From NCBI GenBank assembly GCA_947569705.1, contig CANOSP010000011.1:485-64484 (forward strand): a stretch of 64,000 nt of DNA, given 5' to 3'. Below are positions 5,181-50,094 of this stretch, in pieces. Position 1 is the stretch's first letter. Each line of letters begins with the position of its first letter. The position numbers and the translations under genes are program-made. This DNA comes from an uncultured Erysipelotrichaceae bacterium. GTDB taxonomy: Bacteria; Bacillota_I; Bacilli_A; Erysipelotrichales; Erysipelotrichaceae. The notes beneath the pieces were generated by a model, which worked only from the letters and a program-made list of their open reading frames with translations, was not told the DNA's origin and did not search any database.

Positions 5181-5445
5181 ATCACTCATATCCTTTCTAT
5201 CAAATATTTATATAAATAAAGTTAAAGTATAAGCAGCTTCCCATTTGCTGCTTTACAATTTCTGTATATACAAAACATAAAACCCATAAAATCATAAACA
5301 AAAAAAGCGGTGTTATACGGTTATAACATATACTCTTCCACCCAAACGACGATATCAAATTCAAAAAGGATTAAAAATATACAAAAAAAATATCAATTTT
5401 TTAGAACATCAAAATCAACCCAAATAAAACTGTTTTTCGGCCGCA

Positions 5446-6492
5446 TCAAAGCTGATTGAAACTGTTCTCTACAAGCTCTTTAAAAGGCATATTCCAATAA
5501 TAAGTATAAAGCAGTTCATAATACGTTCCACCGTATTGCTTTAAGGAATCATGAACCGCAAAAAGTTGGTTCAGCTGTTCTTGACTCAGCTTTTTAATGT
5601 CATCTTCACAATGCGCATAATTTAATAAAATTTCATAAGCTTCTCTCGGAGTATGAATCGGTATATTCTCAAAATATAAATCTGAAAATAATGCTTTACC
5701 GTCAATACGTTCTTGATCAGAACGATAATTCTCAGTTAATTGATAACCTCCGTACAAAGTACCTCCGCACATTAATACAATCATTGCGATTTTCACATAG
5801 GGCAGTGCATAAGAAAACATATGCAATGGATAAGAAAACCACGTTTGATAAGAAACCGGCGCCAGTGAGGCACATGCCGTTACTAACAGTGCTTCTATAG
5901 AAGATGCTCTGAAAGACAGTTTAATATCATTTTCCTTTTCGTATTGCTCAATCGCTTCTTTGAGATATTTTTTGCCGTAAAGCAATCGACTTTTCACTGT
6001 TCCCAAAGGGCAATGAAGCAATTCGGAAATTTCTTTATTATTTAACTGAACAAAGAAATATAAAATCAGCACTTCTCGATACTGCGGTTTTAACTCTAAC
6101 AAGCATCTTTGAAGAATCTGCATATCCGTAGAATAATGATTCATATATTCAGGACAATATTCCATTCGATCTTCTGTTTCATTGCTTAATATTTCAAGCT
6201 GAGAATCACTCATTTGCTGATCTCTTTTTCTTCTTAGCATTGTTATGGTTTTAGAATGTGCAATTTTTCCGATCCAAGCTTTAAACTGCGTCGGATCTTT
6301 TAACGCTGATATTGATCGCTGTACCTGTACAAAAGTTTCCTGTACTATTTCTTCCGCATCCGCATGATTTTTTGTCAGTTGAAAAGCAATATAATAAACC
6401 AGACGACGATAACGGTTGTATAGTTCATTAAAAGCTGTTTCATCATTTTCCTGTAAACGAAGGACCAGTTGCGTCAGTGTTGATTTTTTCAT
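5446..6492 (-). CDS. ECF-type RNA polymerase sigma factor with C-terminal TM segment and extra domain
   Basis: Region 2 (AFNELYNRY..DAEEIVQETFVQV..FKAWI..IA) and region 4 (YREVLILYFF..LNNKEISELLHCPLGTVKSRL). Hydrophobic IAMIVLMCGGTLYGGY follows. Start set at ATG 6492 after AAAGGA (ORF track start 6507). Confidence 0.9.
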   Translation of the reverse strand: MKKSTLTQLVLRLQENDETAFNELYNRYRRLVYYIAFQLTKNHADAEEIVQETFVQVQRSISALKDPTQFKAWIGKIAHSKTITMLRRKRDQQMSDSQLEILSNETEDRMEYCPEYMNHYSTDMQILQRCLLELKPQYREVLILYFFVQLNNKEISELLHCPLGTVKSRLLYGKKYLKEAIEQYEKENDIKLSFRASSIEALLVTACASLAPVSYQTWFSYPLHMFSYALPYVKIAMIVLMCGGTLYGGYQLTENYRSDQERIDGKALFSDLYFENIPIHTPREAYEILLNYAHCEDDIKKLSQEQLNQLFAVHDSLKQYGGTYYELLYTYYWNMPFKELVENSFNQL

Positions 6493-6650
6493 ACAAATTC
6501 CTTTCATAACAATTTACTTTATTTTAAAATAACATTTTTATCATTTTTTGTAAATATGTAAATTCTGTAAGAATAATAGAAATCCTCTGAAAAACTGTAA
6601 AACAAATAAAAAAATTTGCTTTTTACAAAACAACATGTGATTTTAAATTT

Positions 6651-6676
6651 AAAAAAAACAGAGATAGTTCCCTGTT
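6651..6676 (-). terminator. Intrinsic terminator after 6688-7200
   Basis: AACAGGGA-ACTA-TCTCTGTT followed by a T run on the minus strand. Confidence 0.65.
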
Positions 6677-6687
6677 AAAATGTAAAA

Positions 6688-7200
6688 TTAATCCGCGATA
6701 TTTTTTATTTTTGTATCATGACGAAGACTCGTCATCATATGAGTAATACCGATATATGCCGTTGCGTCGATTATGATTGCTTTTTTACTTGCTTTGGGAT
6801 GGATTTTCCACAGTGCGACAACCTTACGATTTCCTTCCTTAAAAAGAAAGTGTTTCTTAACCTCTACGATCGCATTAATATCATCATAAGCAAGCCGTTT
6901 TTTACGCATATTTAAGAATGTGTAATCGATTAAACCGTATTCGTAAAATTCAATTTTGTCAAGCAAAGTAGATAATTGAAATAAAGCAAGAAACGCAAAA
7001 ACAAGAAGCAGTATAACTGCAATCACATCCTCTGATACTTCAATTGATAAAAAGATGGCAACGATAAAGATTATCATAACAATTGTAAAAATTATCGGCA
7101 TCATTTTTTTACTTTCCCCAACCATCTTTAAGGAACCGAAATCTTGATCTGTTCCGCTGATTCCATCTTGTTGAGTAGACAGTTTTCTTTTATATTCCAT
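6688..7200 (-). CDS. Hypothetical membrane protein (2 TM plus soluble C-terminal domain)
   Basis: 170 aa ORF with RBS GAGGT and two hydrophobic stretches. Confidence 0.7.
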   Translation of the reverse strand: MEYKRKLSTQQDGISGTDQDFGSLKMVGESKKMMPIIFTIVMIIFIVAIFLSIEVSEDVIAVILLLVFAFLALFQLSTLLDKIEFYEYGLIDYTFLNMRKKRLAYDDINAIVEVKKHFLFKEGNRKVVALWKIHPKASKKAIIIDATAYIGITHMMTSLRHDTKIKNIAD

Positions 7201-7292
7201 AAGTTAAACCTCATTTCTCTAATAGTTTATCATTTTTCAGCGTAAGTATCAATGATGAGACTGAATGATGTTAAAACATTTACAAACAAGCG

Positions 7293-7317
7293 AAAAAGAG
7301 CGGAGCTTAATCCGCCC
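7293..7317 (-). terminator. Intrinsic terminator after surface protein 2
   Basis: GGGCGGA-TTAAGC-TCCGCTC-TTTTT just after the stop codon. Confidence 0.7.
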
Positions 7318-7319
7318 TG

Positions 7320-10300
7320 TTATTCAGATAAATGACTTGTTTTTCTTTTGTATAACAGATAGAAAGTGATTCCAAACGAGAATAAACACAGACCGCTGTA
7401 CATCATTAAATTAGTTGCGTCACCTGTATTTGCTCCGCCCATGCTTGTAACGGGATTATACATGCCTTTTACGGATGTATCGAGTTTATCCGCTTGAGGT
7501 TCATCGTTCTTAGGCACAGTAGGATCATTTGGTTCTTCCGGTTCTTCAGGGTTTTCAGGATCTTCCGGTTCATTAGGTTCACTGAAATCCATAATATCAT
7601 ACGGATAATCTCCTTGAATGGTTTTGTTTGGTTTCCACTCTGTTATTTCTTGGATATTATCTTCCGGGACACCGTCACCGTCCTTGTCAATATTAATATC
7701 CGCAACGCCGTCTCCGTCACTATCGATATTAGTGTTAGGAATTCCGTCGTCATCCGTATCAATATTAAGATCAGGGATACCATCTCCGTCTATATCTACA
7801 TTCACATCAGGAAAGCCGTTGCCGTCAGTGTCAATATTCCAAACCGGCTTGATTTTTTCCGTATCGTAGAGGAATTTATTTGATGTATAATCCTGATTTG
7901 GTTTCCATGTATCATGTTCCGCTACATTTAACATAAAGCCGACTTTTTGGATATTAATATCCGGCTTCATATCGCCGTCGGTATCGATATCAATATCAGG
8001 AATTCTATCCCCATCGGTGTCAATGTTGATTAATGGTTTTACACTTGTACCGGTACAGTATTCTTCTAAGATTCCGTTATCAACATCTTGTTTCACACAC
8101 TTGGTCGGTTTCCAATCTGATTTTTTAAGAATCACTAAATTAAGATCAGGTTTGCCGTCATTGTCTGTATCAATATTCAAGTCAGGTTTCCCATCCCCGT
8201 CACTGTCAATATTCAAGTCAGGGATACCATCATAATCTCTGTCACCGTTAATCACAGTCCATTTCTTTGTATCATTTGGATCTTTCCACTTGATATTTAG
8301 ATCAGGACATCCATCACCATCCGGATCATTGAAATCAGGCTTACCGTCACCGTCCACATCGACATCGATCTTTTTGATGTTTAGGTCTGAGCACTTTTCT
8401 TCGGATTCATTCGTCGCATTGTCTATCGTTGTTGCACACACTCGATAGTTTCCGATATTGTTAATCTTGAAGCTCAGTATCTTATTCGTTCCCGGTTTTG
8501 CACTCTTTTCTTCTATCGGTGTTGTGCTTGTCATCATGCCTTGCGCATCTAATTCATAGACCTGATAGCTGACTTCCTTGACTTCACTCACCTTTACCGT
8601 TGCTCTTGTGTTTGGCTGAGGATCTTCTGTTTTGATCTCTACCTGCACTCCCGGTTTAAAGTAATGTCCTAAGGTGATTTCATTTAAGATATTGGATACT
8701 CCGTCTTGATTTACAGGATAGCCTGTGATACTTACAATCTTCGGTTTCATCATATCTATCTTTACATGATCTTGAAGCTTTTCACTGATCGCTCCTTTAT
8801 GCAAACTTGTACCGCTCGGATCGATTCTGAAGTAGATGTCTGTTTCATTGTCATCTTCTTTGTTTATTGTAAAGCGCTGCTTGTTCGCATTCGTAAATGT
8901 CACTGTATCTGATATTTGGTCATACACTCCTGCACTTGCCGTGGTGTTCGCTGTATCAATCACTACATCGACTAGATAGTTATGCCACTTATCTGATGTT
9001 ACTGTATTTCCGTCCGGATCCTCTAAATGATACCAACTGTCACTTGGTTCATCTTGTTTGATTGTCAAGCTTCCTGATTCAAGCTTGATTTCATAATGCT
9101 TCGTATTTCCGTTCAATTCATTTGTGCCATAGCTTCCGCTGATGTCATACTTTCCTGTTGTTTTTGTATCTTTAATTGCTTTGCCGTTTTGTTTTGCACT
9201 TGTATTCTTAGGAATCGGAAAATCATTCATACTGTCAGTAAATGCAAATGCATTCGTACTAGGCTGTTTGAATTTGTATGTCGGGAAGGCTTCTCCCACA
9301 TAGATTTCTTCATCCTCATAGGTTAAGGTGATTGGTTTCTTTTTTACAATGATAATCTGTTCTCCATAGTCTCCGCCGATCGCATTACAATCATCCACTG
9401 CCGGATCAAATGCATCCTTTGTCTGACATACCTTTATGATTACCTGTCCGCTTCCGATTGCCGTTATCGGCTGACTTGTTTTCGTATTCACCGCTGCCGT
9501 ATTAACATCAAGTATACTTGTATCATCGACATAGAAATACACAGGTACTCCATTCTTATAGCCACTTGTTATTTTTGCCTCTATGTTTGTATCTCCATAG
9601 GTCATGCCGGGGGCATACAGATTTAAACTTGTCGGCGGTCGATCTGTTGTTTCCAATATCGTTGTGGCTTGTTTACTGTTATAGTTTCGATCCTCAGGGG
9701 ATGTGGCTGTTAAGGTTGCGGTACCTGCTTTCCCTAAGGTTTTGAAGCTTTGATCTTGTCCGCTGATCGGTGGTTGTGCTTCGGCAATCGTATTATCACT
9801 GCTTGATAACAATACATCTCCCTGACTCAGCTTGCCGTTATAGGTTGGCTGGATCGTTGCCGGTGTTTTCCCAATCGTCCATTTCGGTGTATTCACAAAG
9901 GCAAAGTCCTTTTGTTCTGCTTTTTCAATGACGATCTTCGCATAGATGCATTGTGCCGCATAACCGTCATGTGCATTCATACATGCTTTTACATATGCAT
10001 CGCCGCCGTTTCCGTAATCTCCGTCCGGATCACTGGCATTGATGATATTGAAATGATTCAAGTTATTATGATCAATCACATCTTCATCTACACTGATTCC
10101 TGTTGATTCAGCGATCGTTACTTCGCTGTATGTGGAATCAATATTCGTCTTTACATCGATTGTTCCGTTTTGTTCATACGTCTTTTTATACACCGGTACA
10201 TTCTTTGTTCCATACGTATCGCTGAGTGCCAACTTCGTTCCTGCGATAGGATCAATAAAGTAGAAATCTGCCTGTGCATCCACTATCACAATAATCACAT

Positions 10301-13878: not shown

Positions 13879-14871
13879 TCAGCGCTTTGCTTCCTCATAA
13901 GCCTGAATCCATCCGTCTTTATTTAACAGGTCGTAAAAGGGAGAATTATTTTGTCTCAGTTGTTTTACATACGGCAAAAGTTCATCTAACGCTGCTTGAT
14001 TCAACGCATTCAGTTCCTCAGAACAATGTGCCTTTTTTCTGATGATAAAATATGCATCTTGATCGGTGATCTCATGTCTGTATTCCTCATCTAAGACAAC
14101 ACCCTGATTCCATTGATAAAAAGAATATGTACTGACACCGAGAACTGCCGCAAAGCATAACGCCGCAATGCCGGATAACTGAATAGACGCACTGCGCTTA
14201 AAAAACGACAGTTTGCCTAAATTCCATTCGCAAGGCTTGGGGGCTTTACAATGAAAAGCATATAAAAGCAATAGTCCTGTAGGAAAACAGTAAAAAGATA
14301 GTTTTTCATGATGTTGAGATTCATATAAATGAATTTGCTTGCGCAATAACTGCTTACCGGTACGCAGTCTGCTCTTTACCGTTCCTTCCGGTATATCTAA
14401 AACTTTCGCAATCTCACTCATTTTAGCGTCATCATAATACTTTAAAATCAAGGTTTCGCGATAAATATACGGTATATTATCCAACAGCTTTAATACAATA
14501 TCCGCATTACTTTGCTTACGCACGATCACAGAAGGCAGTGAATCTTCACGATCATCGGCGATATCCAATGCCGCCAATGCATGTTCTTCCATATAAATTT
14601 CACGATTCTTACGAAACATATTCTTACAGCGATTGATTAAAATCTGCTTCATCCATACAATCACTACATCCGGATTCTTAAGATGAATAATATTTTGTTT
14701 GATATTAATAAAAGTATCCTGAACAACATCTTGTGCATCTGCTTCATTTTTTGTGAGCTTTAAAGCCATATAATAAAAGGCAGTATAAAAATCATGATAT
14801 AATTTCGCAAATGCTTCCTCATTACCGGTTTGAATTTCTCTGATAAGCTGCGGTAAATCTTCACGCTTCAT
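13879..14871 (-). CDS. ECF-type sigma factor with C-terminal TM segment and extra domain (paralog of 5446-6492)
   Basis: AFAKLYHDF..DAQDVVQDTF (region 2), YRETLILKYY..MSEIAKVLDIPEGTVKSRL (region 4), TM IAALCFAAVLGVSTYSFY. Start set at ATG 14871 after AAAGGAG (ORF track start 14895). Confidence 0.9.
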   Translation of the reverse strand: MKREDLPQLIREIQTGNEEAFAKLYHDFYTAFYYMALKLTKNEADAQDVVQDTFINIKQNIIHLKNPDVVIVWMKQILINRCKNMFRKNREIYMEEHALAALDIADDREDSLPSVIVRKQSNADIVLKLLDNIPYIYRETLILKYYDDAKMSEIAKVLDIPEGTVKSRLRTGKQLLRKQIHLYESQHHEKLSFYCFPTGLLLLYAFHCKAPKPCEWNLGKLSFFKRSASIQLSGIAALCFAAVLGVSTYSFYQWNQGVVLDEEYRHEITDQDAYFIIRKKAHCSEELNALNQAALDELLPYVKQLRQNNSPFYDLLNKDGWIQAYEEAKR

Positions 14872-14994
14872 GATTATTACTCCTTTATCTTTCATATATA
14901 TTAAATTATTACATAAACAAACATTTTTATCAATAAATTATCATAATATTTTTTAATTTGCATTTTCTTAAAATGATAAAAAGTGATCATTAAA

Positions 14995-39011: not shown

Positions 39012-39284
39012 ATGAAAATACAAACTTGTGTAATTCACGATATTGATTTTAAACCTTGTTCTTACAGCGATGCTTTACATGAAAGCCTGTTGCGTATGGG
39101 ACAAGGGTTTCCGATCCATGTAAAGCTGACAGACGGTGTGTATCGTTGTATTGACGGACATAAGCGCCTGAGCGCCATCAAAGACATACTGAAAAAAGCG
39201 CCTGATCACGCTTTAAAAAACATAAAAATCATAGTTATAAATAACGCTCGCACTCCAAGCGGTACAGCGAAAAACCATCATTAA
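39012..39284 (+). CDS. Stand-alone ParB/Srx N-terminal-like domain protein
   Basis: ESLLRMGQGFPIHV..YRCIDGHKRLSA; RBS AAGGAG. Confidence 0.7.
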   Translation: MKIQTCVIHDIDFKPCSYSDALHESLLRMGQGFPIHVKLTDGVYRCIDGHKRLSAIKDILKKAPDHALKNIKIIVINNARTPSGTAKNHH

Positions 39285-39528: not shown

Positions 39529-40894
39529 TTAATTAAAAAAGTTATAAAGACCTAGAACAAAAACGATGAATACGATGACAGGCAAAACATAGGTCATATA
39601 AGATCGCATATAGTTTTTGATTTTTAAGCCTTTGCCTGTATTTGCCTCATCTACAAACTTATTCCAGCCCCAGCCGTTTTTACGGACACAAAAAAGTACA
39701 AAGATCAATGAGCCGATTGGCAGAATTATATTACTTACCAAAAAGTCCTCAAGATCCATAATAGTTGAACCGTCACCGAACGGTTGAATACCGTTTAACA
39801 TGTTAAATTCTAATGCACACGGCAGTGAAAGCACAAACATCATAATGCCGTTTACCATGCAAGTTTTTCTTCTGCTCCATCCGGTAATATCCATCGTCGA
39901 GGCAATGATTCCCTCGAATACAGCAAAAATTGTTGAAAGCAACGCGAACGATATAAAGATAAAAAACAGACTGCCCCATAAACATATTGTTAAATATATT
40001 CGGCAATGTAATAAAAATCAGGCTAGGTCCGCTGTCAGGCTGAACACCGTTTGCGAAGCAAGCAGGAAAAATAATCAATCCCGAAACGATTGCGACAAAT
40101 GTATCAAGAAATGCGACATTAACTGCCTCTCCCATAAGGGCTCTTTTTTTGCCGATATAACTTCCGAATATAGCCATTGCGCCGATACCTAAGCTAAGGG
40201 TAAAAAACGCTTGATTCATTGCCGCAACGATTACATTGACAATACCGGCATCTAGCATTTTTTGAAAATCAGGTACAAGATAGAACGCTAAACCTTCTTC
40301 TCCCCCGCTCATAAATATGCTGTTTACGGCAAGCACAAGCATAATGATAAGTAATGCAATCATCATAAATTTTGTGATTCGTTCTAACCCGTCTTTTAAA
40401 CCGAACGAACAAACGAGAAAACCGATAATGACGACGATTAACATAAATAATACCATCGAGTTACCGTCACCCAACATATTATTAAAGTAATTGCCGACTT
40501 CGGTAACCTCAAGACCTTCAAAGCTGCCGTTTGCCATTGCCAGAAAATACCTTAACATCCAGCCTGTTACGGTTGTATAAAACATCATCAAAAGATATAG
40601 CCCGATAACCGATAAATACCCGTGTAAGTGCCACTTTGATCCTTTCGGTTCCAGTTGCTGATAAAGCCTTGCAGGGCTCTTTTGACTTGCACGTCCCAGT
40701 GAAAACTCCATTGTCATTACCGGTATTCCTAAAATAAGCAGATAAAACAAATGAATCAGTACAAATATTCCGCCGCCGTATTGACCGGCAATATACGGAA
40801 ACTTCCATACATTTCCGATTCCTATGGCACATCCTGCACTTAATAAAATAAAACCCAATCTACTTCCGAGTTTCTCTCTTTCCATAATTTTCAT
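39529..40894 (-). pseudogene. Sodium-dependent transporter (SNF/NSS family), frameshifted near 39973-39983
   Basis: ORF 39803-40894 (GCAIGIGNVWKFPY, QAFFTLSLG) and ORF 39529-39942 (STIFAVFE..C-terminal TMs) are two frames of one gene. An assembly error is not excluded. Confidence 0.85.
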
Positions 40895-40960: not shown

Positions 40961-41554
40961 CTACTCTGAAACATCGATATTAAATTCTATTTGTCGGATT
41001 AAATCTCCGCAGTACTGATAATTTGATACTAGACATTTCTTTCCGCTTGGTTTTTGCAATCTCTGATGATCATATTTATCCGGCATTTCCAATGCACTAA
41101 TATATTGATCTATCACTTTTAAAACAGCTTCAATTCCTGAAATACCTGCGATAATCTGTGATTGTACCTGCACTGTTTTTTGCAATGTGCGCATACGCTT
41201 TTCATTCACTATATATCCTTTTATCATGTATTCTTTCAATATTACATTTGCCCATTTTCTAAATATCGTTGCTCTTTTTGATTTAATACGATAACCTACA
41301 GATAAAATCATATCTAAATTATAATGCTTTAAAGTTCTTTTTACTGTTCTATCCCTTTCTTTTTGAACAACCGAGAAATCCTCGGTAGTTGATTGTTTAT
41401 CTAATTCTTTTTCCTTGTAAATATTTTTTATATGTAATCCAATATCAAACAGCACACTCATTTGCTTCTGCGTTAGCCAAACTGTATCATTATCTGCACA
41501 TATAGAAACATCTAACTGCAATTCCCCAGCTTTAAAAATAACAATTTCATTCAT
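40961..41554 (-). pseudogene. Truncated RhuM-Fic paralog (Fic domain lost)
   Basis: DTVWLTQKQM..YNLDMILSVGYRIKS..FRKWA; the second half is nearly identical to 43561-44499; it shifts frame at FNIDV and ends before the Fic motif. Confidence 0.8.
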
Positions 41555-41755: not shown

Positions 41756-41791
41756 TTATCTTCTCGCTAGCATTACGACACTTTCAATATG
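41756..41791 (-). repeat. rlmD 3'-end copy R5 (HIESVVMLARR*)
   Basis: CATATTGAAAGTGTCGTAATGCTAGCGAGAAGATAA; 30/36 identical to R2. Confidence 0.85.
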
Positions 41792-41853
41792 TATCGAATG
41801 TTTGTAATTGTAAAGAATGCTTCAAATCCTTGTTGAATTATCCTATAAAAATA

Positions 41854-42085
41854 TCAGCTTCCAATGCAGGATATAGACAATACATGTATGTTATTGTTTA
41901 AAGCATAGTTTTCTTTCGTATTACATAACAGGCAAGAAAAGCCAATCGAATACCTTGATTTTTCTAACTGTTTAAAAGCCTTTACACTATCTAAATGAAA
42001 ACTAACAAATCTATATACCTCGGCAGATTTTCCGATTTGTATTTAATGCTTCTTTAATTTTAGTATTTATTGTTCTTTCAATCAC
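41854..42085 (-). pseudogene. Internally deleted remnant of a possible AAA/DUF4143-type ATPase
   Basis: RBS AGGTG + GTG gives MIERTINTKIKEALNT..; another frame gives a C-terminal-like ..DSVKAFKQLEKS..CLLCNTKENYALNNNIHVLSISCIGS*. The family call is from recollection only. Confidence 0.4.
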
Positions 42086-42204
42086 TTTTATCACCTGCTT
42101 CTACTATACCATGATTTTATGCGATTTAAAGTACAAACTTAAATTCGCATAAAAAAATGCAAGTCATATTTGTAACCTACATCTCTATTCACTGATTTGA
42201 TTTT

Positions 42205-42272
42205 TTAACTTTTTTGCAACAGTACAATGGATTCCACATGGCTTGTTACTTTTAAATGAAGCAATTACAAGT
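42205..42272 (-). repeat. rlmD 3'-end copy R4 (HVESIVLLQKS*, 42205-42240) with conserved upstream arm
   Basis: CTTGTAATTGCTTCATTTAAAAGTAACAAGC|CATGTGGAATCCATTGTACTGTTGCAAAAAAGTTAA. Confidence 0.85.
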
Positions 42273-42318
42273 ATAGTTAAAACAAATGCGCTCATCAATT
42301 TTTTTATTAGAAATTCAG

Positions 42319-43371
42319 TTACCACTTTTCCATTAAATTAAATAACGCAACATTTTTATATATAACTTCTTTACCCACTTTCTCGCTAATAACAAAACCT
42401 TGCTCCTCTAAAAGTTTTAAATATTTATTAGCCGTAGATCGTGATATATTAAATTCATTTCTTAAAAATTCATTTTTGGTATAAAACTCATAATACAAAT
42501 ATTCAACGAGTTCTTTTGAATAGATTTTAGGTAATCGCTCTCTCATTAACATTGTTGTTTGCTCCATACTATGAATGATTTCATCTATAAAGCGAATGGT
42601 AAAATCTGATGTTGCCGCAATACCTTTTAACATATAGCGAACAAATATACGAATATTTTCTTCATTATTATTGCATTCTCTTAATAAAGTATAGTATTCA
42701 TCTTTATTGTGGATGATGTATCTGCTTAAATAAAGAACCGGATATGATAGTTTATTCATCATAACTAAAAATAAAACATTTAGAATCCTTCCTGTTCTCC
42801 CATTACCATCATAAAAAGGATGTATTGTTTCAAACTGATAATGAATCACTCCCATATTAATTAACGGATCATATTCATTATCTTGATTAATATATTTTTC
42901 TAAGTTAGACAGATAATCTAGAATTTCTACTTCTGATTGCGGCGGTGTATGAAGAATCTCACCTGTTCTTGTATTCTTTATCACTGTTCCGGGTAACTTT
43001 CTAATGCCACCTTTATCAGATTCAATACAGTTTTGAATATTAATTAGAGAACGAATACTTATGAAGTCATTCCTTTTTAATTCTTCAAAGCCTAAAGAAA
43101 TAGCCTTTCGATACCTTAAAACTTCTTTTGCATTTGCTGAAATTGAACTTTCACTCGTCATTTCCTTATATATTTCATCATATGTTGTTACAATATTCTC
43201 AATTTCAGATGAGTCCTTAGCTTCTCCTAATGTAATAGCATTTAATAAGATTTGTGGGTTCGGAAGTTGGTTTATGATGCCTTTTAATTCTCCGACTTTG
43301 TTATTTGCATTTGATAACAATTTCAATGTTTCAACATCATTTAAATCTATAGATAAAGGAAGTTTAAACAT
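42319..43371 (-). CDS. Class II Fic family protein (AMPylase-like) with C-terminal HTH
   Basis: Inhibitory SSEIEN motif, canonical HPFYDGNGRTGR, C-terminal ISRSTANKYLKLLEEQG. Confidence 0.92.
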   Translation of the reverse strand: MFKLPLSIDLNDVETLKLLSNANNKVGELKGIINQLPNPQILLNAITLGEAKDSSEIENIVTTYDEIYKEMTSESSISANAKEVLRYRKAISLGFEELKRNDFISIRSLINIQNCIESDKGGIRKLPGTVIKNTRTGEILHTPPQSEVEILDYLSNLEKYINQDNEYDPLINMGVIHYQFETIHPFYDGNGRTGRILNVLFLVMMNKLSYPVLYLSRYIIHNKDEYYTLLRECNNNEENIRIFVRYMLKGIAATSDFTIRFIDEIIHSMEQTTMLMRERLPKIYSKELVEYLYYEFYTKNEFLRNEFNISRSTANKYLKLLEEQGFVISEKVGKEVIYKNVALFNLMEKW

Positions 43372-43482
43372 TCAATCACCTCGTGCGTTCATTATAACAG
43401 TTTTTACACACGTTCACAACACGTGTTTAATTTTTTTGTTTTTTTATACACGTCAATGTTCCATATATCATAAAATAGTCTT

Positions 43483-43545
43483 TTATTTCTTCTCTATCTG
43501 AAACACACTTTCCACATGGCTTATAGCTTTTAAATTGAGCAATCA
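43483..43545 (-). repeat. rlmD 3'-end copy R3 (HVESVFQIEKK*, 43483-43518) with conserved upstream arm
   Basis: TGATTGCTCAATTTAAAAGCTATAAGC|CATGTGGAAAGTGTGTTTCAGATAGAGAAGAAATAA; 43511-43545 is 34/35 identical to 44653-44687. Confidence 0.85.
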
Positions 43546-43560
43546 TAGACATAGATAGCC

Positions 43561-44499
43561 TTAAGCGTTTTCTTTTTGTAAAAAATTCATTACCAATGCA
43601 ATCATAGTTTCTTTTTCTTCCGGTTTGGATTCTGCAATCATTAAAGTAATTGCGACTAATGCACTATCACTGATTATTTTAGTATTCCCAATAAATAATG
43701 ATTGATTTTTATGCAAAAAAGCTAAAAACAAAGCTGCAGCTATCCTCTTGCATCCATCCGCAAACGGATGATCCTTTATCATAAAATAAAGCAGATTGGC
43801 AGCTTTTTCTTCTAATGTCGGATATACTTCTTGTCCAAAAACCTCTTGATACACTGCTGCAAGTATTCCCTCTACCTTACCGCTCTCTTTTTCAACTCCG
43901 AATACAGCGGTATCAAATTTCATTTGCTTAATTAAATCACAGCAGTCCTGATAAGTCAATTTTACAAGACATTTCTTTCCGTTTGGTTTTTGCAATCGCT
44001 GATGATCATAACTATCCAGCATTTCTAACGCACTAATATACTGATCTATCACTTTTAAAACAGCTTCAGCTTCAATTCCTGAAATACCTGCGATAATCTG
44101 TGATTGTACCTGCACTGTTTTTTGCAATGCGTGCATACGCTTTTCATTCACTGCATATCCTTGAATCATATATTCCTTTAGAATCTTACTTGCCCATTTA
44201 CGAAAATAGACACCGCGTTTAGACTTTACTCTATACCCTACGGAAATTATAATATCTAAAGAATAAAACGGTACTCTTTGCTTAACACCCTCAACACGCA
44301 AAAATTGCGTGTTGTTATCTCTGTCTGCTTCATTTTCTTTAAACACATTATTGATGTGTTTTCTTATGGTCTTTTCGTCACGTTTAAAAAGATCAGCCAT
44401 TTGATTAGCGCTTAACCACACGGTATCTCTCTGCGATAAAATTGTTACGTTCAGCCTAAGCTCGCCATCTTCAAAGACCACAATATCACTAACATCCAT
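43561..44499 (-). CDS. RhuM-like N-terminal domain fused to a Fic/Doc domain
   Basis: DTVWLSANQMADLF..YSLDIIISVGYRVKS..FRKWA; Doc-type HPFADGCKRIA. Confidence 0.9.
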   Translation of the reverse strand: MDVSDIVVFEDGELRLNVTILSQRDTVWLSANQMADLFKRDEKTIRKHINNVFKENEADRDNNTQFLRVEGVKQRVPFYSLDIIISVGYRVKSKRGVYFRKWASKILKEYMIQGYAVNEKRMHALQKTVQVQSQIIAGISGIEAEAVLKVIDQYISALEMLDSYDHQRLQKPNGKKCLVKLTYQDCCDLIKQMKFDTAVFGVEKESGKVEGILAAVYQEVFGQEVYPTLEEKAANLLYFMIKDHPFADGCKRIAAALFLAFLHKNQSLFIGNTKIISDSALVAITLMIAESKPEEKETMIALVMNFLQKENA

Positions 44500-44624
44500 A
44501 AGGCAATCCTCCTACACATATGAATAAAATTATTCTCTATTATATCATGAAAATCTTCTGCAAAATCATAAATAAATATTAAAATATTTTTATAACAAAT
44601 GGCGTAAAAATTTTCCTTTCTCAT

Positions 44625-44692
44625 TTATCTTCTCACTAACATTACAACACTCTCCACATGGTTTATAGCTTTTAAATTGAGCAATCACAAGC
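44625..44692 (-). repeat. rlmD 3'-end copy R2 (HVESVVMLVRR*, 44625-44660) with conserved upstream arm
   Basis: CTTGTGATTGCTCAATTTAAAAGCTATAAAC|CATGTGGAGAGTGTTGTAATGTTAGTGAGAAGATAA. Confidence 0.88.
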
Positions 44693-44916
44693 ATGGTTAT
44701 CCCTACGCATGTTCTTTCTACTTCATATTTTTGTGTTAAATATTTTATTGGTTGATCTCTCCATTTTCTTCACTTTTTCTTTTTTATACATATGTTTATT
44801 GTCTTTCCATCTTGCTTACAAAGAGCATCGATTAAAATAGCATTTAACCATGCGGCTCATTGGTCAATACCCTCGGCACTTTAAAAATAACACAAATGTA
44901 TATTGCTATCTCTGAA

Positions 44917-46128
44917 CTATGCAATTAGATATATATTCTCATTATCAAAACAAATCTGCGCGGTATGATTATAAATCTGAATCATATCTTCCATTTTATC
45001 TACAAACACTTTAGTGCCCGGATTACAAGCAGCAGCAAACTCCTTTATCGCTTTCGTTTCCATTTCGATAGCATTTTTATGTAATTGAGCACCCTTGTTT
45101 TTTAAATACTCATCGACTTGGCCTTCCTTAACTAACGGAATGCTACCAATAATTTTACCAACTGTTTTACCAGCAATTCCAATGCCTTTTACAACATTTG
45201 TATCTAAGCCAACCTTACAAATTCCCTCAAGATATAAAGAACCATTTTTGAACTGTTCTCTGTATGTATCTGATAAGTTTTTTATCTCTTCTTTGACCTT
45301 AGCTATGTACTCCTCTTTAAAATTACCACTTAGCATAATTTCCATTAATGCTCCTAACGAGTAAGTGTACAATGACAATCTATAGTACTTGAACTTTTTC
45401 TCTAAATCAGATAATATTGAGTTTACTTTACTTTGCGCAACAACAAACTGTTTTGATGAAACAATATCAGTAACTTTCTTTTGAAAAGCAATCATATTCT
45501 TTCGAGCGCGATTCTGAATATCTAAAACTAATTTATGACTGCTTGCTACTGAAAGTTTATTGTCCCAATTATATTTATAATTAGTTATGATTTCCATTAA
45601 AGATTCAACATCTGCTTCTATCTGCGATTCGTTTTCTACTTCAAGAAATGTAAGTATTTCCTTTTGCGTTTCAGCAATCTCAGCAATATCCTTTTCTATC
45701 GAATATAATGCTACCGCCATCATCATTGTTGCCGGATTGAAAGCGGCTACTGACTGTGTTGTTGCGGTTAATGGACCGGCTTCTGCAAGCTGTACCATTT
45801 TTGATCCACCCTCAGCTGTTTTCATCGCCCCCCATGCATTACCATTTTTAGCAAGCTTTAAGTTATCTCCTGCCGCTGCATTTGCTATTCTGAAAAGGCC
45901 GTTTGTTGCAAAAGTTGTCGTCTGAGTAACCTTATTTAATGACGGAATTAGCGTTGATACAACAGCACCTAACGTAGACAATTTACCGATAGGAACACTT
46001 AATGCCTTATTGCTATTGATGGATGATCTCGCATCCTCTAAAAGATCATCTGTAAGTTCTACCAGTCCGTCTGCCCTCCCCTCTATATCTATCTTGTATG
46101 TATTATTTATTTTAATTACCTCACTCAT
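44917..46128 (-). CDS. Hypothetical protein (403 aa, hydrophobic segments and coiled coil)
   Basis: RBS GGAGGT; no recognisable catalytic motif. Confidence 0.75.
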   Translation of the reverse strand: MSEVIKINNTYKIDIEGRADGLVELTDDLLEDARSSINSNKALSVPIGKLSTLGAVVSTLIPSLNKVTQTTTFATNGLFRIANAAAGDNLKLAKNGNAWGAMKTAEGGSKMVQLAEAGPLTATTQSVAAFNPATMMMAVALYSIEKDIAEIAETQKEILTFLEVENESQIEADVESLMEIITNYKYNWDNKLSVASSHKLVLDIQNRARKNMIAFQKKVTDIVSSKQFVVAQSKVNSILSDLEKKFKYYRLSLYTYSLGALMEIMLSGNFKEEYIAKVKEEIKNLSDTYREQFKNGSLYLEGICKVGLDTNVVKGIGIAGKTVGKIIGSIPLVKEGQVDEYLKNKGAQLHKNAIEMETKAIKEFAAACNPGTKVFVDKMEDMIQIYNHTAQICFDNENIYLIA

Positions 46129-46182: not shown

Positions 46183-46230
46183 TTATCTACGCTTTTGTTT
46201 CCTCACTATCAGAACCGCACTTTCCACATG
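46183..46230 (-). repeat. rlmD 3'-end copy R1 (HVESAVLIVRKQKRR*)
   Basis: CATGTGGAAAGTGCGGTTCTGATAGTGAGGAAACAAAAGCGTAGATAA, starting 17 bp after the RhuM stop. Confidence 0.8.
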
Positions 46231-46247
46231 ATGACCTTTGTCCGAAC

Positions 46248-47267
46248 TCAATTCTTACCCCTTTTCTTTACTGTACTGTGAATATTTTTAATACTTTCCA
46301 AATATTCTTCTTCTACCGGCGATAAGTTCTGTACCTGATATTTCTTATATTCTTCTGTTGCTTTTTCGATTGCCTGTGCATGACTAATCGTTCCGGCCCC
46401 TTGCAACACTTTTTCACCTGTAGTTTTTAAAACATTATCAAGGTGCTCCACATAATCTGCCATATACATAGGATTGTGGCGCATAGCTTGAATCTCCGCA
46501 AAATCAAAATATCCCGATATAATATTATTTAGGATCTTTAACTCTTCATCATTGAGATAATTTTTTGCAATACTGATATCTTTTAATACAGGAAAATCAC
46601 CAGAAAAACTTTTCAATCCCATAAAAGGCTGACTGGCGTCCGCACGCCCATATATAATTTCTGCTGCTGTATGCCCATGTGCTGCATAGTGTAATTTATT
46701 TTGTACCATTTTGAAAAATGCAATAGATTCACTACTCTTGGGATCATAATCAACACTTGTTGCATAAAGATCAAGTACTTGCCGGTACATAACTTTTTCA
46801 GATGAGCGTATATCCCGAATACGGTCTAATAACTCTTTCCAGTAAGTCCCGCCACCCAAATTTTTCAGCCGTTCATCATCCATTGTAAACCCTTTTATCA
46901 TGTACTCTTTTAATCGTTCAGTAGCCCACCGACGAAAATTTGTAGCAATTTTAGACTTTATTCTGTACCCAAGCGAAATAATCATATCAAGATTATAGTG
47001 TATTGTATTATAGTTTTTCCCGTCAGCCGCAGTTGTTCGGAATTTCCGAACAACTGCATTTTCCTCTAGCTCACCCTCTTCAAAGATGTGCTTAGTATGC
47101 TCACTGATATTAGATTTACTGGTTTGATAAAGTTCACATAATTGTGCCTGTGTAAGCCAAACGGTCTCGTTTTCAAATTTAACATCTATTTTTGTCTTTC
47201 CATCTTCCGTTTGATATATGATGATTTTGCTTCCTATAATATTTAAATTATCTTTATTGTCCACCAT
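46248..47267 (-). CDS. RhuM family (virulence RhuM) protein
   Basis: ETVWLTQAQLCELY, HYNLDMIISLGYRIKS, FRRWAT, RIRDIRSSEKVMY, QNKLHYAAHGHTAAE. Confidence 0.92.
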   Translation of the reverse strand: MVDNKDNLNIIGSKIIIYQTEDGKTKIDVKFENETVWLTQAQLCELYQTSKSNISEHTKHIFEEGELEENAVVRKFRTTAADGKNYNTIHYNLDMIISLGYRIKSKIATNFRRWATERLKEYMIKGFTMDDERLKNLGGGTYWKELLDRIRDIRSSEKVMYRQVLDLYATSVDYDPKSSESIAFFKMVQNKLHYAAHGHTAAEIIYGRADASQPFMGLKSFSGDFPVLKDISIAKNYLNDEELKILNNIISGYFDFAEIQAMRHNPMYMADYVEHLDNVLKTTGEKVLQGAGTISHAQAIEKATEEYKKYQVQNLSPVEEEYLESIKNIHSTVKKRGKN

Positions 47268-47295: not shown

Positions 47296-47777
47296 TTATA
47301 TATTTGTAAATAATCCTCTTAAGATTTTTTCGATTTGTTCAGATTCAACTTGCCTTTTTAAATAATCAATTTTTGTCTCGATATATTTTTTATGCTTAAT
47401 CCATTCTAACCCTATTAAACTTGGAAGTAATGATTCAAGATACTCAATCCTAGCAGAATACATAGGTACCGCACTCCCCGACAACTCCAAGAAGTAGGTG
47501 TTAATGGTATTCTTTTAAAATCTTCAAACAATAGATTATTCTCAAGTAATAGCAAAATATATTCCTTCTTTCTTTCGATTTCCAATTTCGATATAACTGA
47601 ATATAGGCAATACTTTTTTGTTTCATCATTAGAGAACAACTGAATGTATTGTCGAATCCACTCGTCTTGTCTTCTCCAACACATAATCCTTAATTTCCTC
47701 ATAGGTGGCTATACTCTCCGCGGCCGTCAAATCAATTCATCCATTTCTAATTCCACATTGACATGCTTCAATTTATA
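47296..47777 (-). pseudogene. Decayed RlmD C-terminal extension fused to a frameshifted C-terminal fragment of a larger protein
   Basis: After the rlmD stop: KHVNVELEMDEL/(D)LTAAESIATYEEIKDYVLEKT with a 1-nt frameshift. It then switches to ..DEWIRQYIQLF..LTPTSWS/SGSAVPMYSARIEYLESLLP..*, with a second frameshift at about 47485. Confidence 0.6.
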
Positions 47778-49106
47778 TTATTTAAGTTTGGAAAGCAACA
47801 CGACACTTTCAACATGCTGCGTCTGCGGAAACATATCCACCGGTTGTACCGCTGCCGCATGATAACCGTACTGTTTCAATCGTTCAATATCTCTCGCTTG
47901 TGTTGCGACATCACACGACACATAAACAATTCGTTGCGGCTCCATACTTGCAATGCTTTCCAATACCTGCTCATCACACCCCTTGCGCGGCGGATCTACA
48001 ATTACAACATCAATTTTCTGATTATTATCACTCAATTCCTTCGCATAAGCTTTCGCATCAGCGCAAATAAACTGTGCATTTTCAATATGATTGCGCTCAG
48101 CGTTTTCCTTTGCGTTCTCAATAGCTTCAGGAATAATTTCAATACCGATCACCTGCTTTGCCTGCTTCGCTAAACACAAGCCGATCGTTCCGACCCCGCA
48201 ATAACAGTCCAGAACCGTCTCATTCCCGCTCAACTGCGCAAACTGCATTACTATGCGATACAGCACCTCGGTCTGCTGCGGATTCACTTGATAAAAAGAT
48301 TTCATCGCAATACGAAAGGACAAATCAAAAATTCGATCACTGATATACGGATGACCGTACAATAAAATCTCTTCCTCGCCTAAAATCACATTATCATCGC
48401 GCTGATTAATATTTAACATAACGCTTTTTATCTGCGGAACTTGTTCACACAAAAGCTGCACTAACGGTTCCCAATCCATGCCGTTCGCATCAGAGGTGAT
48501 AAAAACTACCATAACTTCATCACTGCTTCTCGCATATTTAATCAATAAATGGCGAAGTCCGCCAAGCGAATGCTTTGAACTTAAAAACCCCTTCACAATC
48601 TGTAATACACGATTCATTACAGGATGCTGAATCATACACTCATCCATATCCACCGATTCATTGGAATGTAAACGATAAAAGCCGCAGACCACTCGATCAT
48701 TCTGTAACTGAAACGGCACCTGCGCTTTGTTGCGATAATTCAATCCGTTTTCCATCATCAAAACATCAGACACTTCAGTATCAATATGAGCGATGCGTCT
48801 CATTACACCTTCTACCTGCTCCTTTTTAAAGAACGCCTGATGTTTCAAAGACATATGCTGAAGCTGACAACCGCCGCATTTACCGGCAAGCGGACACAGC
48901 GGTTCAACACGCTCTTCGTTTTTTTTCAAAAGCTGCTTTACTCTTCCGTATCCAAACTGCTTCTTCACCATTGTCACAATGATTTCTGCTTCTTCACCCA
49001 AGATTAAATTTTTCACAAATAACGGAAATCCGTCAACCTTTACCACACCAAAACCTTGATAAGTATAGCTGACACAAGTTCCTTTCACAATATCATTCTT
49101 TTTCAT
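47778..49106 (-). CDS. rlmD: 23S rRNA (uracil-5-)-methyltransferase RlmD/RumA
   Basis: CGGCQLQH Fe-S motif, YRNKAQ, FYQVN, DCYCGVGTIG, VDPPRKG, YVSCD, DMFPQTQHVESV; start after GGAGG (ORF track start 49157). Confidence 0.95.
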   Translation of the reverse strand: MKKNDIVKGTCVSYTYQGFGVVKVDGFPLFVKNLILGEEAEIIVTMVKKQFGYGRVKQLLKKNEERVEPLCPLAGKCGGCQLQHMSLKHQAFFKKEQVEGVMRRIAHIDTEVSDVLMMENGLNYRNKAQVPFQLQNDRVVCGFYRLHSNESVDMDECMIQHPVMNRVLQIVKGFLSSKHSLGGLRHLLIKYARSSDEVMVVFITSDANGMDWEPLVQLLCEQVPQIKSVMLNINQRDDNVILGEEEILLYGHPYISDRIFDLSFRIAMKSFYQVNPQQTEVLYRIVMQFAQLSGNETVLDCYCGVGTIGLCLAKQAKQVIGIEIIPEAIENAKENAERNHIENAQFICADAKAYAKELSDNNQKIDVVIVDPPRKGCDEQVLESIASMEPQRIVYVSCDVATQARDIERLKQYGYHAAAVQPVDMFPQTQHVESVVLLSKLK

Positions 49107-49125
49107 AAGCCTCCAAGAAAAAGGG

Positions 49126-50094
49126 CTATTCGCCCTCTGTCTGTTGTTTATTATCATTCGTCGGCGGATTAGAAGTATCCGGATTCAAAATTTCCTCTGC
49201 ACTTTGTTTATCCTTAGGAGTACTCAATACATCATCGACAGGCTGCTCGGCAGAAGAATTCTTCACCTTGCTTAAATGAATCTGACTCTTTTTTTCTTCC
49301 TCATTTTTAGGAATATAATTATAAGCACTGATCTCCAAATCATACATCTTAACTACCTTGTCACCGTCTTTTTTATTAGTAAAATACTTATCGACAGGAA
49401 GTTTTTCATTCACTTTGGCATAAGCATCATTCATCAGCTTTTGGATTGCATCCTGCTTTAAATCATCTTTCGCATTGATATTGATTCTTAAGGTGGCAGA
49501 CTTCAAATTGATTTCGACTGCCTCTGCGCCCTCAAAAGTCAAGCTTGACTCTAATTCCTTTAAATCTTCTTCGGTAATTTTAGGATCCAAAGCATTTTTA
49601 AAGCGTGATCCCTCTACCGGTTCAGAAGAGTTCTCACGAGAACCTAAAAATATATACAATAAGATTAAGCAAGGAATCGCAATCACACCGATGGTTACCC
49701 ACAATAAATAATTAGGTTTTTTCGCTGCCCCTTTGGGATGCTTCACCGGTGATTGAGTTGACCGCTGCTTTTTCGTCGATGTCGACTGAGGTTTTGTCAA
49801 CTTGCTTTGTGATGACGACTTACTTTGAGATGTTGACTTGGACGCTTCTTTCTTCGGTGTAGAAGCATTGCCGACAGTCTTTACACTCTTTTTCTCATTC
49901 TCTTTATTTTCAGCTTCTTTTTGTTTTTTTGAGATTGGTTTATGTTCAACAGTGTTTTGCTTACTGTCAGTACTTTTAGAAGCCTCTTTTTGACGAGATT
50001 CATCTGCCCACTGCTTCATTGTTTCCATATCGCTGTCCAGACTGTTTTGTTCTGAACCTATCGCATGTCTTTTCTTCACTTCTTGTTCTTTCAT
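49126..50094 (-). CDS. Hypothetical single-pass membrane protein with Lys/Ser-rich N-terminus
   Basis: TM YLLWVTIGVIAIPCLILLYIFL; RBS GGAG. Confidence 0.75.
   Translation of the reverse strand: MKEQEVKKRHAIGSEQNSLDSDMETMKQWADESRQKEASKSTDSKQNTVEHKPISKKQKEAENKENEKKSVKTVGNASTPKKEASKSTSQSKSSSQSKLTKPQSTSTKKQRSTQSPVKHPKGAAKKPNYLLWVTIGVIAIPCLILLYIFLGSRENSSEPVEGSRFKNALDPKITEEDLKELESSLTFEGAEAVEINLKSATLRININAKDDLKQDAIQKLMNDAYAKVNEKLPVDKYFTNKKDGDKVVKMYDLEISAYNYIPKNEEEKKSQIHLSKVKNSSAEQPVDDVLSTPKDKQSAEEILNPDTSNPPTNDNKQQTEGE

Follow-up and report, generated by a model that had tools for sequence, protein, structure and literature searches.

Three junctions in an array of insertions behind the rlmD gene of an uncultured Erysipelotrichaceae bacterium share a conserved arm of ~32-45 bp, which, judged from comparisons between genomes, is the right-hand, element-side end of small, recombinase-less defence-gene cassettes at rlmD. 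At these junctions (R2, R3 and R4) the arm is collinear and lies immediately 5′ of CATGTGGA. As the initial annotation of the window (the whole stretch of 64,000 nucleotides that was analysed) had noticed, it adjoins the His codon, in the minus-strand reading, at 44660 (R2), 43518 (R3) and 42240 (R4).

Anatomy and mobility of the rlmD cassettes

The array contains six consecutive tails, each coding for an RlmD C-terminus. Its features, from rlmD outwards, are as follows.

47778..49157, minus strand: rlmD (RumA-family 23S rRNA U5-methyltransferase), the target gene; Pfam tRNA_U5-meth_tr and TRAM
47809..47816, minus strand: rlmD-proximal core CATGTTGA (His-Val-Glu codons), which holds the crossover region
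47500..47777, minus strand: left end of cassette 1, a decayed ~110-aa extension; tblastn E 1e-8 to 1e-10
46248..47267, minus strand: cargo of cassette 1, RhuM (PADLOC candidate PDC-S05)
46231..46260, minus strand: R1 arm, of a different class, an integrase-gene 3′ relic with GGACAA at -19..-14
46183..46230, minus strand: R1 tail (HVESAVLIVRKQKRR-stop), replacement RlmD end from cassette 2
44917..46128, minus strand: cargo of cassette 2, a 403-aa ORF with no Pfam or PADLOC match
44661..44705, minus strand: R2 arm, right end of cassette 2
44625..44660, minus strand: R2 core and tail (HVESVVMLVRR-stop), left end of cassette 3
43561..44499, minus strand: cargo of cassette 3, RhuM-N/Fic protein (PDC-S23); Pfam, PADLOC
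43519..43563, minus strand: R3 arm, right end of cassette 3
43483..43518, minus strand: R3 core and tail (HVESVFQIEKK-stop), left end of cassette 4
42319..43371, minus strand: cargo of cassette 4, SoFic-type Fic; Pfam Fic_N/Fic/SoFic_C, PADLOC SoFic 2.5e-99
42241..42285, minus strand: R4 arm, right end of cassette 4
42205..42240, minus strand: R4 core and tail (HVESIVLLQKS-stop)
41792..42204, minus strand: cassette 5, a gene-less relic with the 3′ remnant of a DUF4143-type gene, 87.7% identical to genome G274
41756..41791, minus strand: R5 core (CATATTGA) and tail (HIESVVMLARR-stop)
40961..41554, minus strand: truncated rhuM fragment beyond the array; Pfam

The present last codons of rlmD (HVESVVLLSKLK-stop) are supplied by cassette 1, and homology of the gene with that of a congener (G139) ends at 47801, within the tail. 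The ~110-aa extension at the left end of cassette 1, located by tblastn with the extensions from six family genomes as queries, is the sequence which serine-integrase elements fuse to RlmD; the copy here contains one stop and one frameshift. The gene of cassette 4 has a promoter-like site (TTGTGA-17-TATAAT at 43419-43391), and the rhuM fragment beyond the array shows 88-92% identity to part of the cassette-3 gene.

Comparisons with other genomes revealed the anatomy of the cassettes, their mobility and the positions of their junctions. Over 1161 nt (window 43501-44660), cassette 3 with its tail, gene and arm shows 98.45% identity to a locus (L045) in G274, another species, which has a single cassette behind its rlmD; the two rlmD genes barely align. 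The homology begins at the His codon and stops 14 nt beyond the next His codon, and the R2 tail is the live rlmD end in G274. Similarly, a three-cassette block (window 46290-43479) is 99.1% identical to L171, from a lineage that matches at only 82% in the SNF flank, and its right break is at the R3 junction. The breaks in these cassette comparisons are located within the 8-14 nt core. The array order did not vary among the seven contigs of this species that we read, so that present-day activity of the cassettes is putative only.

In G274, L171 and L172 alike, the arm accompanies the cassette to its left. This bears out the earlier proposal that the arm is the cassette-side half of its site, although the further suggestion of a hybrid attR applies to the last junction only, the internal junctions consisting of an arm and the replacement tail of the next cassette.

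Conservation and distribution of the arm

The in-register identity over positions -30..-1 is 29/30 for R2/R3, 24/30 for R2/R4 and 25/30 for R3/R4, and we likewise found the 34/35 identity previously reported between 43511-43545 and 44653-44687. All arm copies align collinearly and without gaps for 45 nt (alignment A3); an apparent 1-nt deletion in the R3 arm proved to be a run of substitutions in the same alignment. R2 is best conserved in its inner 32 nt (44661-44692). Within this inner part of the arm, the TTG, TTAAAA and AAGC positions are invariant. Conservation between R2 and R3 is maximal at -30..+9 (8-10/10) and fades outward, to 6-7/10 at -60 to -40 and to background beyond -70, where the upstream cargo is unrelated. 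With the stretch of rlmD that precedes the gene's own His codon, the arms share only 11-12/30, in agreement with the initial annotation. The accompanying description of the arm as non-coding holds except for the distal part of R3 (beyond -42), which runs into the final codons of the cassette-3 gene; the arm is thus not wholly non-coding.

Within the 2.13-Mb genome, the core motif ATTGCTYMATTTAAAAG has three occurrences, all of them in the R2-R4 array. A nine-arm profile (nhmmer) recovered from the same genome R2-R4 and, on contig C3, one diverged copy that follows a second RumA paralogue, with E=0.075 for the match ranked after these; the genome holds four copies at two paralogues, at RumA/RlmD-tail junctions only. 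Further copies were found in genomes G274, G074 and G055 and in L170, L171 and L172. All of them lie at RlmD-tail junctions, so that the expectation that the arm always stands beside an RlmD-type tail was true in every case found. When a covariance model (model R1) was run over 150 family genomes, strong matches were confined to the genus and one weak match, in G055, was real. Searches with strict arm patterns in JGI metagenomes, GTDB representative genomes and, for two patterns, IMG/VR yielded nothing beyond chance or unrelated coding matches. In 400 family genomes, a 17-nt degenerate motif allowing one mismatch gave only noise, and blastn against phage and plasmid collections gave no match.

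Junctions R1 and R5 had been described as lacking the arm, and this was upheld. R5 has 15/30 in register and no nhmmer match. The R1 arm, in contrast to R2-R4, resembles the gene 3′ ends of seven rlmD-targeting integrases (17-21/30 in register, versus 7-15/30 and no match for R2-R4), which places R1 in another recombinase class, as had been suspected. Going by this likeness, it is what remains of the 3′ end of a classical rlmD-targeting large serine integrase gene. No integrase genes were found in cassettes 2-4. A single array holds at least two end types, the integrase-gene relic at R1 and the R2-R4 arm; integrase-bearing elements at the rlmD site occur intact in this bacterial family.

Crossover position and candidate recombinase

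The crossover probably lies somewhere in CATGTKGA, the site in rumA published for large serine recombinases, where a serine integrase crosses over at the GA in the Glu codon (PMC4120198). All junctions of the array have CATNTNGA in common, those of G055 have only TTGA in common, and one mini-cassette arm subtype brings CTTGT along. The last two observations put the break 3′ of nucleotide 5, in TKGA, and by these sequences the crossover is probably a few bases 3′ of the C|CATGT position proposed initially. One G074 junction, with GGTGTT after the arm, points in the opposite direction and fits a crossover 5′ of the core. We rejected SNP mapping as decisive evidence: L171 and the window are 99% identical, yet one tail differs at nt 6, 9 and 18, and such short-patch differences make the mapping unreliable.

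We consider it rather probable, from the sequences compared, that the arm is the right attachment sequence of miniature, non-autonomous integrative cassettes that enter CATGTKGA with an enzyme acting in trans. Each cassette would comprise a replacement RlmD tail (so that rlmD stays intact), the arm and, between them, a single defence-type gene with a promoter of its own. Entry would be site-specific within CATGTKGA, which covers His-Val-Glu codons some ten codons before RumA-family genes end, and the incoming tail would restore a target-like site on which insertions stack. Stacking by restored sites would make every internal junction read arm(i) - core - tail(i+1).

The 98.5%-complete genome gave 0 matches to the large serine recombinase domain PF07508; it has two small serine recombinases only and eight tyrosine recombinase genes, none of the latter on the contig of the window (C11). 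With no recombinase in the cassettes or the window, and none of the large serine type in the genome, the enzyme would act in trans. The leading candidate, with somewhat less than an even chance, may be a serine recombinase of an rlmD-integrating ICE. Such an ICE, which encodes three serine recombinases (genes at 6807-10685 in L177) together with a MobL relaxase, a VirB4-like ATPase and a coupling protein, is present in the same arrays in G074 (a congener) and L172/L177 (a metagenome contig). Its right ends can be aligned with the arm family (alignment A4), but the likeness is weak and mosaic: in L172 the inner ACATAAGCCATGTGGA matches the arm family, and in G074 the outer AGGGATTATTGTAT..GCTTGATTTAAAGG matches a mini-cassette arm at 23/37 (hand count, alignment A4). 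Profile scores are weak (nhmmer E=2.7 for L172, no match for G074), and the left end is tail-like and decayed. The prediction that the arm would occur at the ends of recombinase-encoding elements failed in its strict form, as no near-identical arm was found at such an end and only this weak alignment was seen. G274 carries the arm but not the triplet ICE, and its single recombinase was rejected as a link, being unrelated to the triplet. In G074, 0 of 13 full-length serine recombinases were fused to an RlmD tail. By eye, no dyad symmetry was seen between arm and tail. We infer both that a recombinase binds the arm and which recombinase this is. An arm followed by a target-like tail resembles attR, and classical serine integrases need a directionality factor for attR x attB. 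The resemblance of the cassette site to attR thus poses a directionality problem, which counts against the serine-integrase account.

Alternative explanations and related systems

The arm might instead be a functionless relic of one ancestral RhuM/Fic cassette in an array that is now immobile, which we think unlikely. The distal arm (-43..-66, and to -110 in G055) derives from the final codons of RhuM/Fic family genes (..IALVMNFLQKE..), and the lack of a cognate recombinase in the genome, the unchanged array order in seven contigs and the visible decay of R5 and of the G074 ICE left junction point the same way. However, R2/R3 identity rises from ~65% to 97% in the inner 32 nt beside the core, the arm stands behind unrelated cargo at varying distances, and near-identical cassettes or blocks lie beside diverged flanks with breaks exactly at the junctions. 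In addition, RhuM/Fic genes elsewhere have no arm behind them; such homologues in other contexts led us to reject the arm as a general feature of that gene family. A signal for expression (terminator, promoter or 3′ UTR element) or a small-peptide gene is very improbable. R2 does contain TTGTGA-17-TATAAA, and two of its frames give peptide-like readings, ..IAQFKSYKPCG.. (in several copies) and ..YDCSI-stop. The R2 hexamers, however, are lost in R3 and R4, and a promoter scan was inconsistent at the arms, with counts equal to chance, so a promoter was rejected. DNA folds on both strands were no better than shuffles (z -0.02 to 0.85), so hairpin and terminator were rejected, and every candidate frame is stopped in at least one copy (G055, G074 and the copy on C3), so the small-ORF reading was dropped.

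A site for a trans-acting tyrosine recombinase (integron-like, Xer-like or phage-type) is a quite improbable reading. It would suit a genome with eight tyrosine recombinase genes and zero large serine recombinases, a reversible system would give stacking without the attP/attB directionality problem, and the G274 homology, which stops after the 14-nt common core, is compatible with a 6-8 bp overlap region. Against this, the absence of a hairpin on either strand (z as above) means that the site is not attC-like, no tyrosine recombinase gene lies on the window's contig, and inverted core-type repeats around the core were not seen by eye. Furthermore, the TTGA that G055 junctions share is too short for a tyrosine overlap region, and the site is a documented serine-integrase site. 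Xer/dif-exploiting elements (IMEX, pdif modules) have a dif-like site of 28-31 bp with a conserved XerD arm; compared by eye with dif consensus sequences, the arm showed no resemblance. It is also doubtful that the R2-R4 arm belongs to a dedicated cassette-exchange system of gut Clostridia, in which a trans-acting recombinase would use a linear, non-hairpin site of ~45 bp and defence-gene cassettes would be shuffled, one at a time or as blocks, between RumA paralogues and between species. We know of no integrons in this phylum, and such a system, if true, would be a functional integron analogue there. Integrons and CALINs likewise consist of single-gene cassettes lined up on one strand next to a fixed anchor, with cassettes common to several genomes, but the present array has neither an IntI nor a folded attC, its cassettes bring promoters of their own and its anchor is the coding end of rlmD.

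The favoured reading, of cassettes mobilized in trans at CATGTKGA, has closer relatives. ICEs and IMEs with a single large serine integrase (vanG elements, ICE-r and streptococcal ICEs) insert in rumA/rlmD at the Glu codon that lies ~10-11 codons before the 3′ end; they cross over at GA, accrete in tandem and exchange 3′ ends reciprocally (PMC4120198, PMC4701971). The array shares their target gene, probably their position in it, and their tandem accretion, and cassette 1 retains relics of both ends of such an element. The R2-R4 cassettes differ in being 1.1-1.5 kb long, with one gene and no integrase, in an arm that matches integrase 3′ ends at only 7-15/30, and in a left end that is a short RlmD tail and not a ~110-aa extension. 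In staphylococci, Ccr serine recombinases move SCC and pseudo-SCC composite islands, which lie at rlmH (orfX). In these islands as in the array, insertions follow one another into the 3′ end of an rRNA methyltransferase gene, the target being regenerated each time, and recombinase-less defence-gene cassettes stand beside recombinase-bearing ones; the target (rlmD), site sequence and host group differ, and trans-mobilization is putative here. CIMEs are cis-mobilizable, att-flanked ICE remnants without integration or transfer genes. The units here, which in G074 include 271-nt gene-less mini-cassettes, would resemble CIMEs in having att-like ends that may be related to the ends of the ICE found in such arrays, but the relation between arm and ICE end is weak and mosaic and the cassette cargo is diverse.

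The arm and its cassette site are a variant of a known serine-recombinase hotspot. In Gram-positive bacteria, large elements with resistance genes are known to land in rlmD (rumA); here, the same site hosts defence cassettes that have one gene and no recombinase and that move between species, and it does so at two paralogues of one genome. A literature search found no published description of an R2-R4-type cassette family. The link between the ICE and the arm, if true, would provide a concrete pair of enzyme and substrate, and would account for the spread, among gut Clostridia, of small defence genes that carry no recombinase of their own.

Organization of the array and its arm

Five further copies of the last codons of rlmD lie downstream of the gene, each starting with His-Val/Ile-Glu on the minus strand. 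All five of these tails encode a plausible RlmD C terminus, and their DNA has diverged. The gene, the cargo between the tails and the sequence beyond them are as follows.

49157–47778, minus strand: rlmD (Pfam tRNA_U5-meth_tr and TRAM)
Array cargo, minus strand: RhuM, 339 aa
Array cargo, 44917–46128, minus strand: 403-aa ORF of unknown family
Array cargo, minus strand: RhuM-N/Fic protein, 312 aa
Array cargo, minus strand: SoFic-type Fic protein, 350 aa
Array cargo, minus strand: gene-less relic
Distal to the array, minus strand: truncated rhuM, then a frameshifted SNF symporter gene

PADLOC called SoFic and the defence candidates PDC-S05 and PDC-S23 among the cargo; the 403-aa protein of cassette 2, which keeps company with defence-type cassettes, had no match in Pfam or PADLOC. 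The SNF-family symporter gene (39529–40894), split here into 363 and 137 aa, is unbroken (455 aa) in the related metagenomic contigs L171 and L172. In a congener, G139, the alignment to the window runs as far as 47801 and picks up again at 39283; the flanks are thus conserved, and the array has been inserted between them.

The arm that the initial annotation described immediately 5′ of the His codon at three of the successive junctions behind rlmD (R2, R3 and R4 of R1–R5) is real: 43511–43545 and 44653–44687 are identical at 34 of 35 positions. The three junctions are collinear over 45 nt upstream of the His codon (alignment A3), with in-register matches of 24–29/30, versus 11–12/30 with the rlmD sequence at the same place. 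Counted upstream from the His codon, R2 and R3 are no more alike than background beyond −70; their identity is intermediate between −60 and −40 and near-complete from −30 to +9. R5 gave no significant arm match. The arm is restricted to RumA tails: its motif has three occurrences in the 2.13-Mb genome, always within this array, and BLAST, covariance-model and nhmmer profile searches of the genome added one diverged arm, on contig C3, where it follows a single cassette inserted at a second RumA paralogue (436 aa; L057 6188–8640, equivalent to C3:58187–60640). The C3 cassette (~1.1 kb) carries a gene of unknown family that is probably broken, and its tail and terminator are identical to one tail in the comparison genome G074. 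A third RumA paralogue, on C12 (tail at 41296), carries no insertion. Searches at the family level covered at most 150–400 genomes from a larger group, and scans of the sequence collections were confined to exact patterns.

Other readings of the arm were rejected. Folded as single strands, the junctions did no better than shuffles on either strand (z from −0.02 to 0.85), which excludes a terminator as well as an attC-like hairpin; by the tests that define one, the arm is not an integron attC. Promoter-like matches were at chance level, with none common to the arms, and of two frames that might encode a small peptide each is stopped in at least one copy. The distal arm (about −43 to −66; to −110 in G055) is what is left of the final codons of the RhuM/Fic gene family (..IALVMNFLQKE..). 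This family has more than 8000 homologues, and neither the arm nor rlmD follows it in other genomic contexts. The arm family therefore probably descends from a single RhuM/Fic cassette that later had its cargo replaced, the inner ~32 nt staying almost unchanged.

Movement of cassettes and position of the crossover

The congener G274 has a single cassette behind a diverged rlmD; over 1161 nt, this cassette and window 43501–44660 are 98.45% identical. The homology begins at the R2 His codon and stops 14 nt past the R3 His codon; the mobile unit is therefore tail, gene and arm, and in G274 the tail of this cassette serves as the functional end of rlmD. Blocks have moved as well. Logan contig L171 matches window 46290–43479 over 2812 nt at 99.1%, comprising the end of cassette 1 and cassettes 2 and 3, with other cassettes beyond in L171; the right break of the block is the R3 junction. 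Its SNF flank is only 82% identical to that of the window, which means that several cassettes moved, or were exchanged, as a block. Cassette 3 recurs in L172 (96.7% identical) in yet another cassette order, and L170 has a 93% variant of it followed by a different tail. By these comparisons, the arm belongs to the cassette side of the junctions, as initially proposed. The L172 counterpart of cassette 1 holds a 1247-aa nSTAND3-like NTPase gene (4599–8342) that the window lacks, so that cargo has turned over inside a single cassette.

Single large serine integrases at rumA cross over at the GA of the Glu codon, 11th from the rumA end, and their integrase gene, having no stop, runs on into the rumA tail (PMC4120198; PMC4701971). 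Every junction here has CATNTNGA in common. The crossover had been placed at or near C|CATGT; the region stands, but the break probably lies a few bases downstream, 3′ of nt 5, because TTGA is all that the rlmD-side and distal junctions of G055 have in common, and because a mini-cassette arm subtype carries CTTGT along into two different right-hand contexts. A contrary case is one G074 junction with GGTGTT after the arm, identical to G074's own rlmD tail. In addition, nt 6, 9 and 18 of one tail differ between two copies that are 99% identical; tails therefore exchange short patches, and the crossover can be placed no finer than the region.

Two classes of arm and a candidate enzyme

In this bacterial family, seven elements encode a serine integrase of 557–586 aa with an RlmD tail at the end of its reading frame, and the last 30 nt of the seven genes have GGACAA at −19 to −14 in common. 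The R1 arm matches these 3′ ends at 17–21/30, as highly as they match among themselves, whereas the R2–R4 arms score 7–15/30, which is background, and thus are not of the classical integrase-end class. This bears out the earlier suggestion that R1 may be used by another recombinase. The stretch just past the rlmD stop (47500–47777) is a decayed copy of a conserved ~110-aa extension (..ELDLTSAESKATYQEIKDYVLEK..) that, in other genomes, elements with a serine integrase fuse to RlmD at their left end. Because of this extension and the R1 match, cassette 1 is a gutted classical integrase element. At two further loci (L157 in G071 and L159 in G166), the gene for the serine integrase converges with rlmD and overlaps it at the core, the element having an orientation opposite to that of the other seven.

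The organism's own genome encodes eight tyrosine recombinases, none on the window's contig, and two small serine recombinases; no large one was found in it. A candidate comes from the congener G074, where rlmD is followed, in order, by:

1st: gene-less mini-cassette, 271 nt
2nd: ~52-kb ICE with MobL relaxase, coupling protein, VirB4-like ATPase and three consecutive serine recombinase genes
3rd: three more mini-cassettes without genes; in two of them the end is a diverged but scorable arm of the R2–R4 family

The mini-cassettes on G074 contig C12 (L149 419–1089; L110 ~14700–14900), stacked on both sides of the ICE, consist of tail, terminator-like hairpin and arm, and look like end-to-end deletion derivatives.

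The recombinase triplet recurs, 97% identical, in metagenome contig L172/L177, 1 kb upstream of a junction with the tail of cassette 1, after which come relatives of cassettes 1 and 3. The right ends of the ICEs align with the arm family (alignment A4): the L172 end has the inner ACATAAGCCATGTGGA in common with it, as well as an outer AGGGATTACTGTATCTA block, and the G074 end agrees with one mini-cassette arm at 23/37 outer positions (hand count). By profile search this similarity is weak (E=2.7 genome-wide for L172, no match for G074), and it gains weight only because it is located exactly at junctions. At its left end, the ICE looks like a tail that has decayed. The third recombinase of the triplet is 25% identical to the classical rlmD integrase and so represents a separate clade. 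The triplet ICE was not found in G274, although G274 has the arm.

Related systems and a proposed mechanism for stacking

Among known systems, the rumA serine-integrase hotspot, the SCC and pseudo-SCC islands at rlmH, and CIMEs come closest, and the rlmD cassette arrangement resembles them in the way it works; a literature search found no description of this rlmD cassette family. In assemblies from this bacterial family, four contigs end within 100–400 nt of the rlmD tail (L114 in G129, L119 in G084, L133 in G156 and L137 in G068), which suggests repeat-induced assembly breaks at this site, so rlmD arrays may be under-counted.

We favour the arm as the element-side half-site of non-autonomous cassettes, acted on in trans by a serine recombinase that an ICE supplies. 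The main objection is that arm plus target-like tail resembles attR, and classical serine integrases alone do not recombine attR with attB. A further objection is the same array order in 7/7 contigs of this species read. In the favoured mechanism, the recombinase from such an ICE, possibly still active today, would bind the arm and insert or excise cassettes at the RumA core. The incoming tail would restore both rlmD and a usable target, thereby allowing cassettes to stack.
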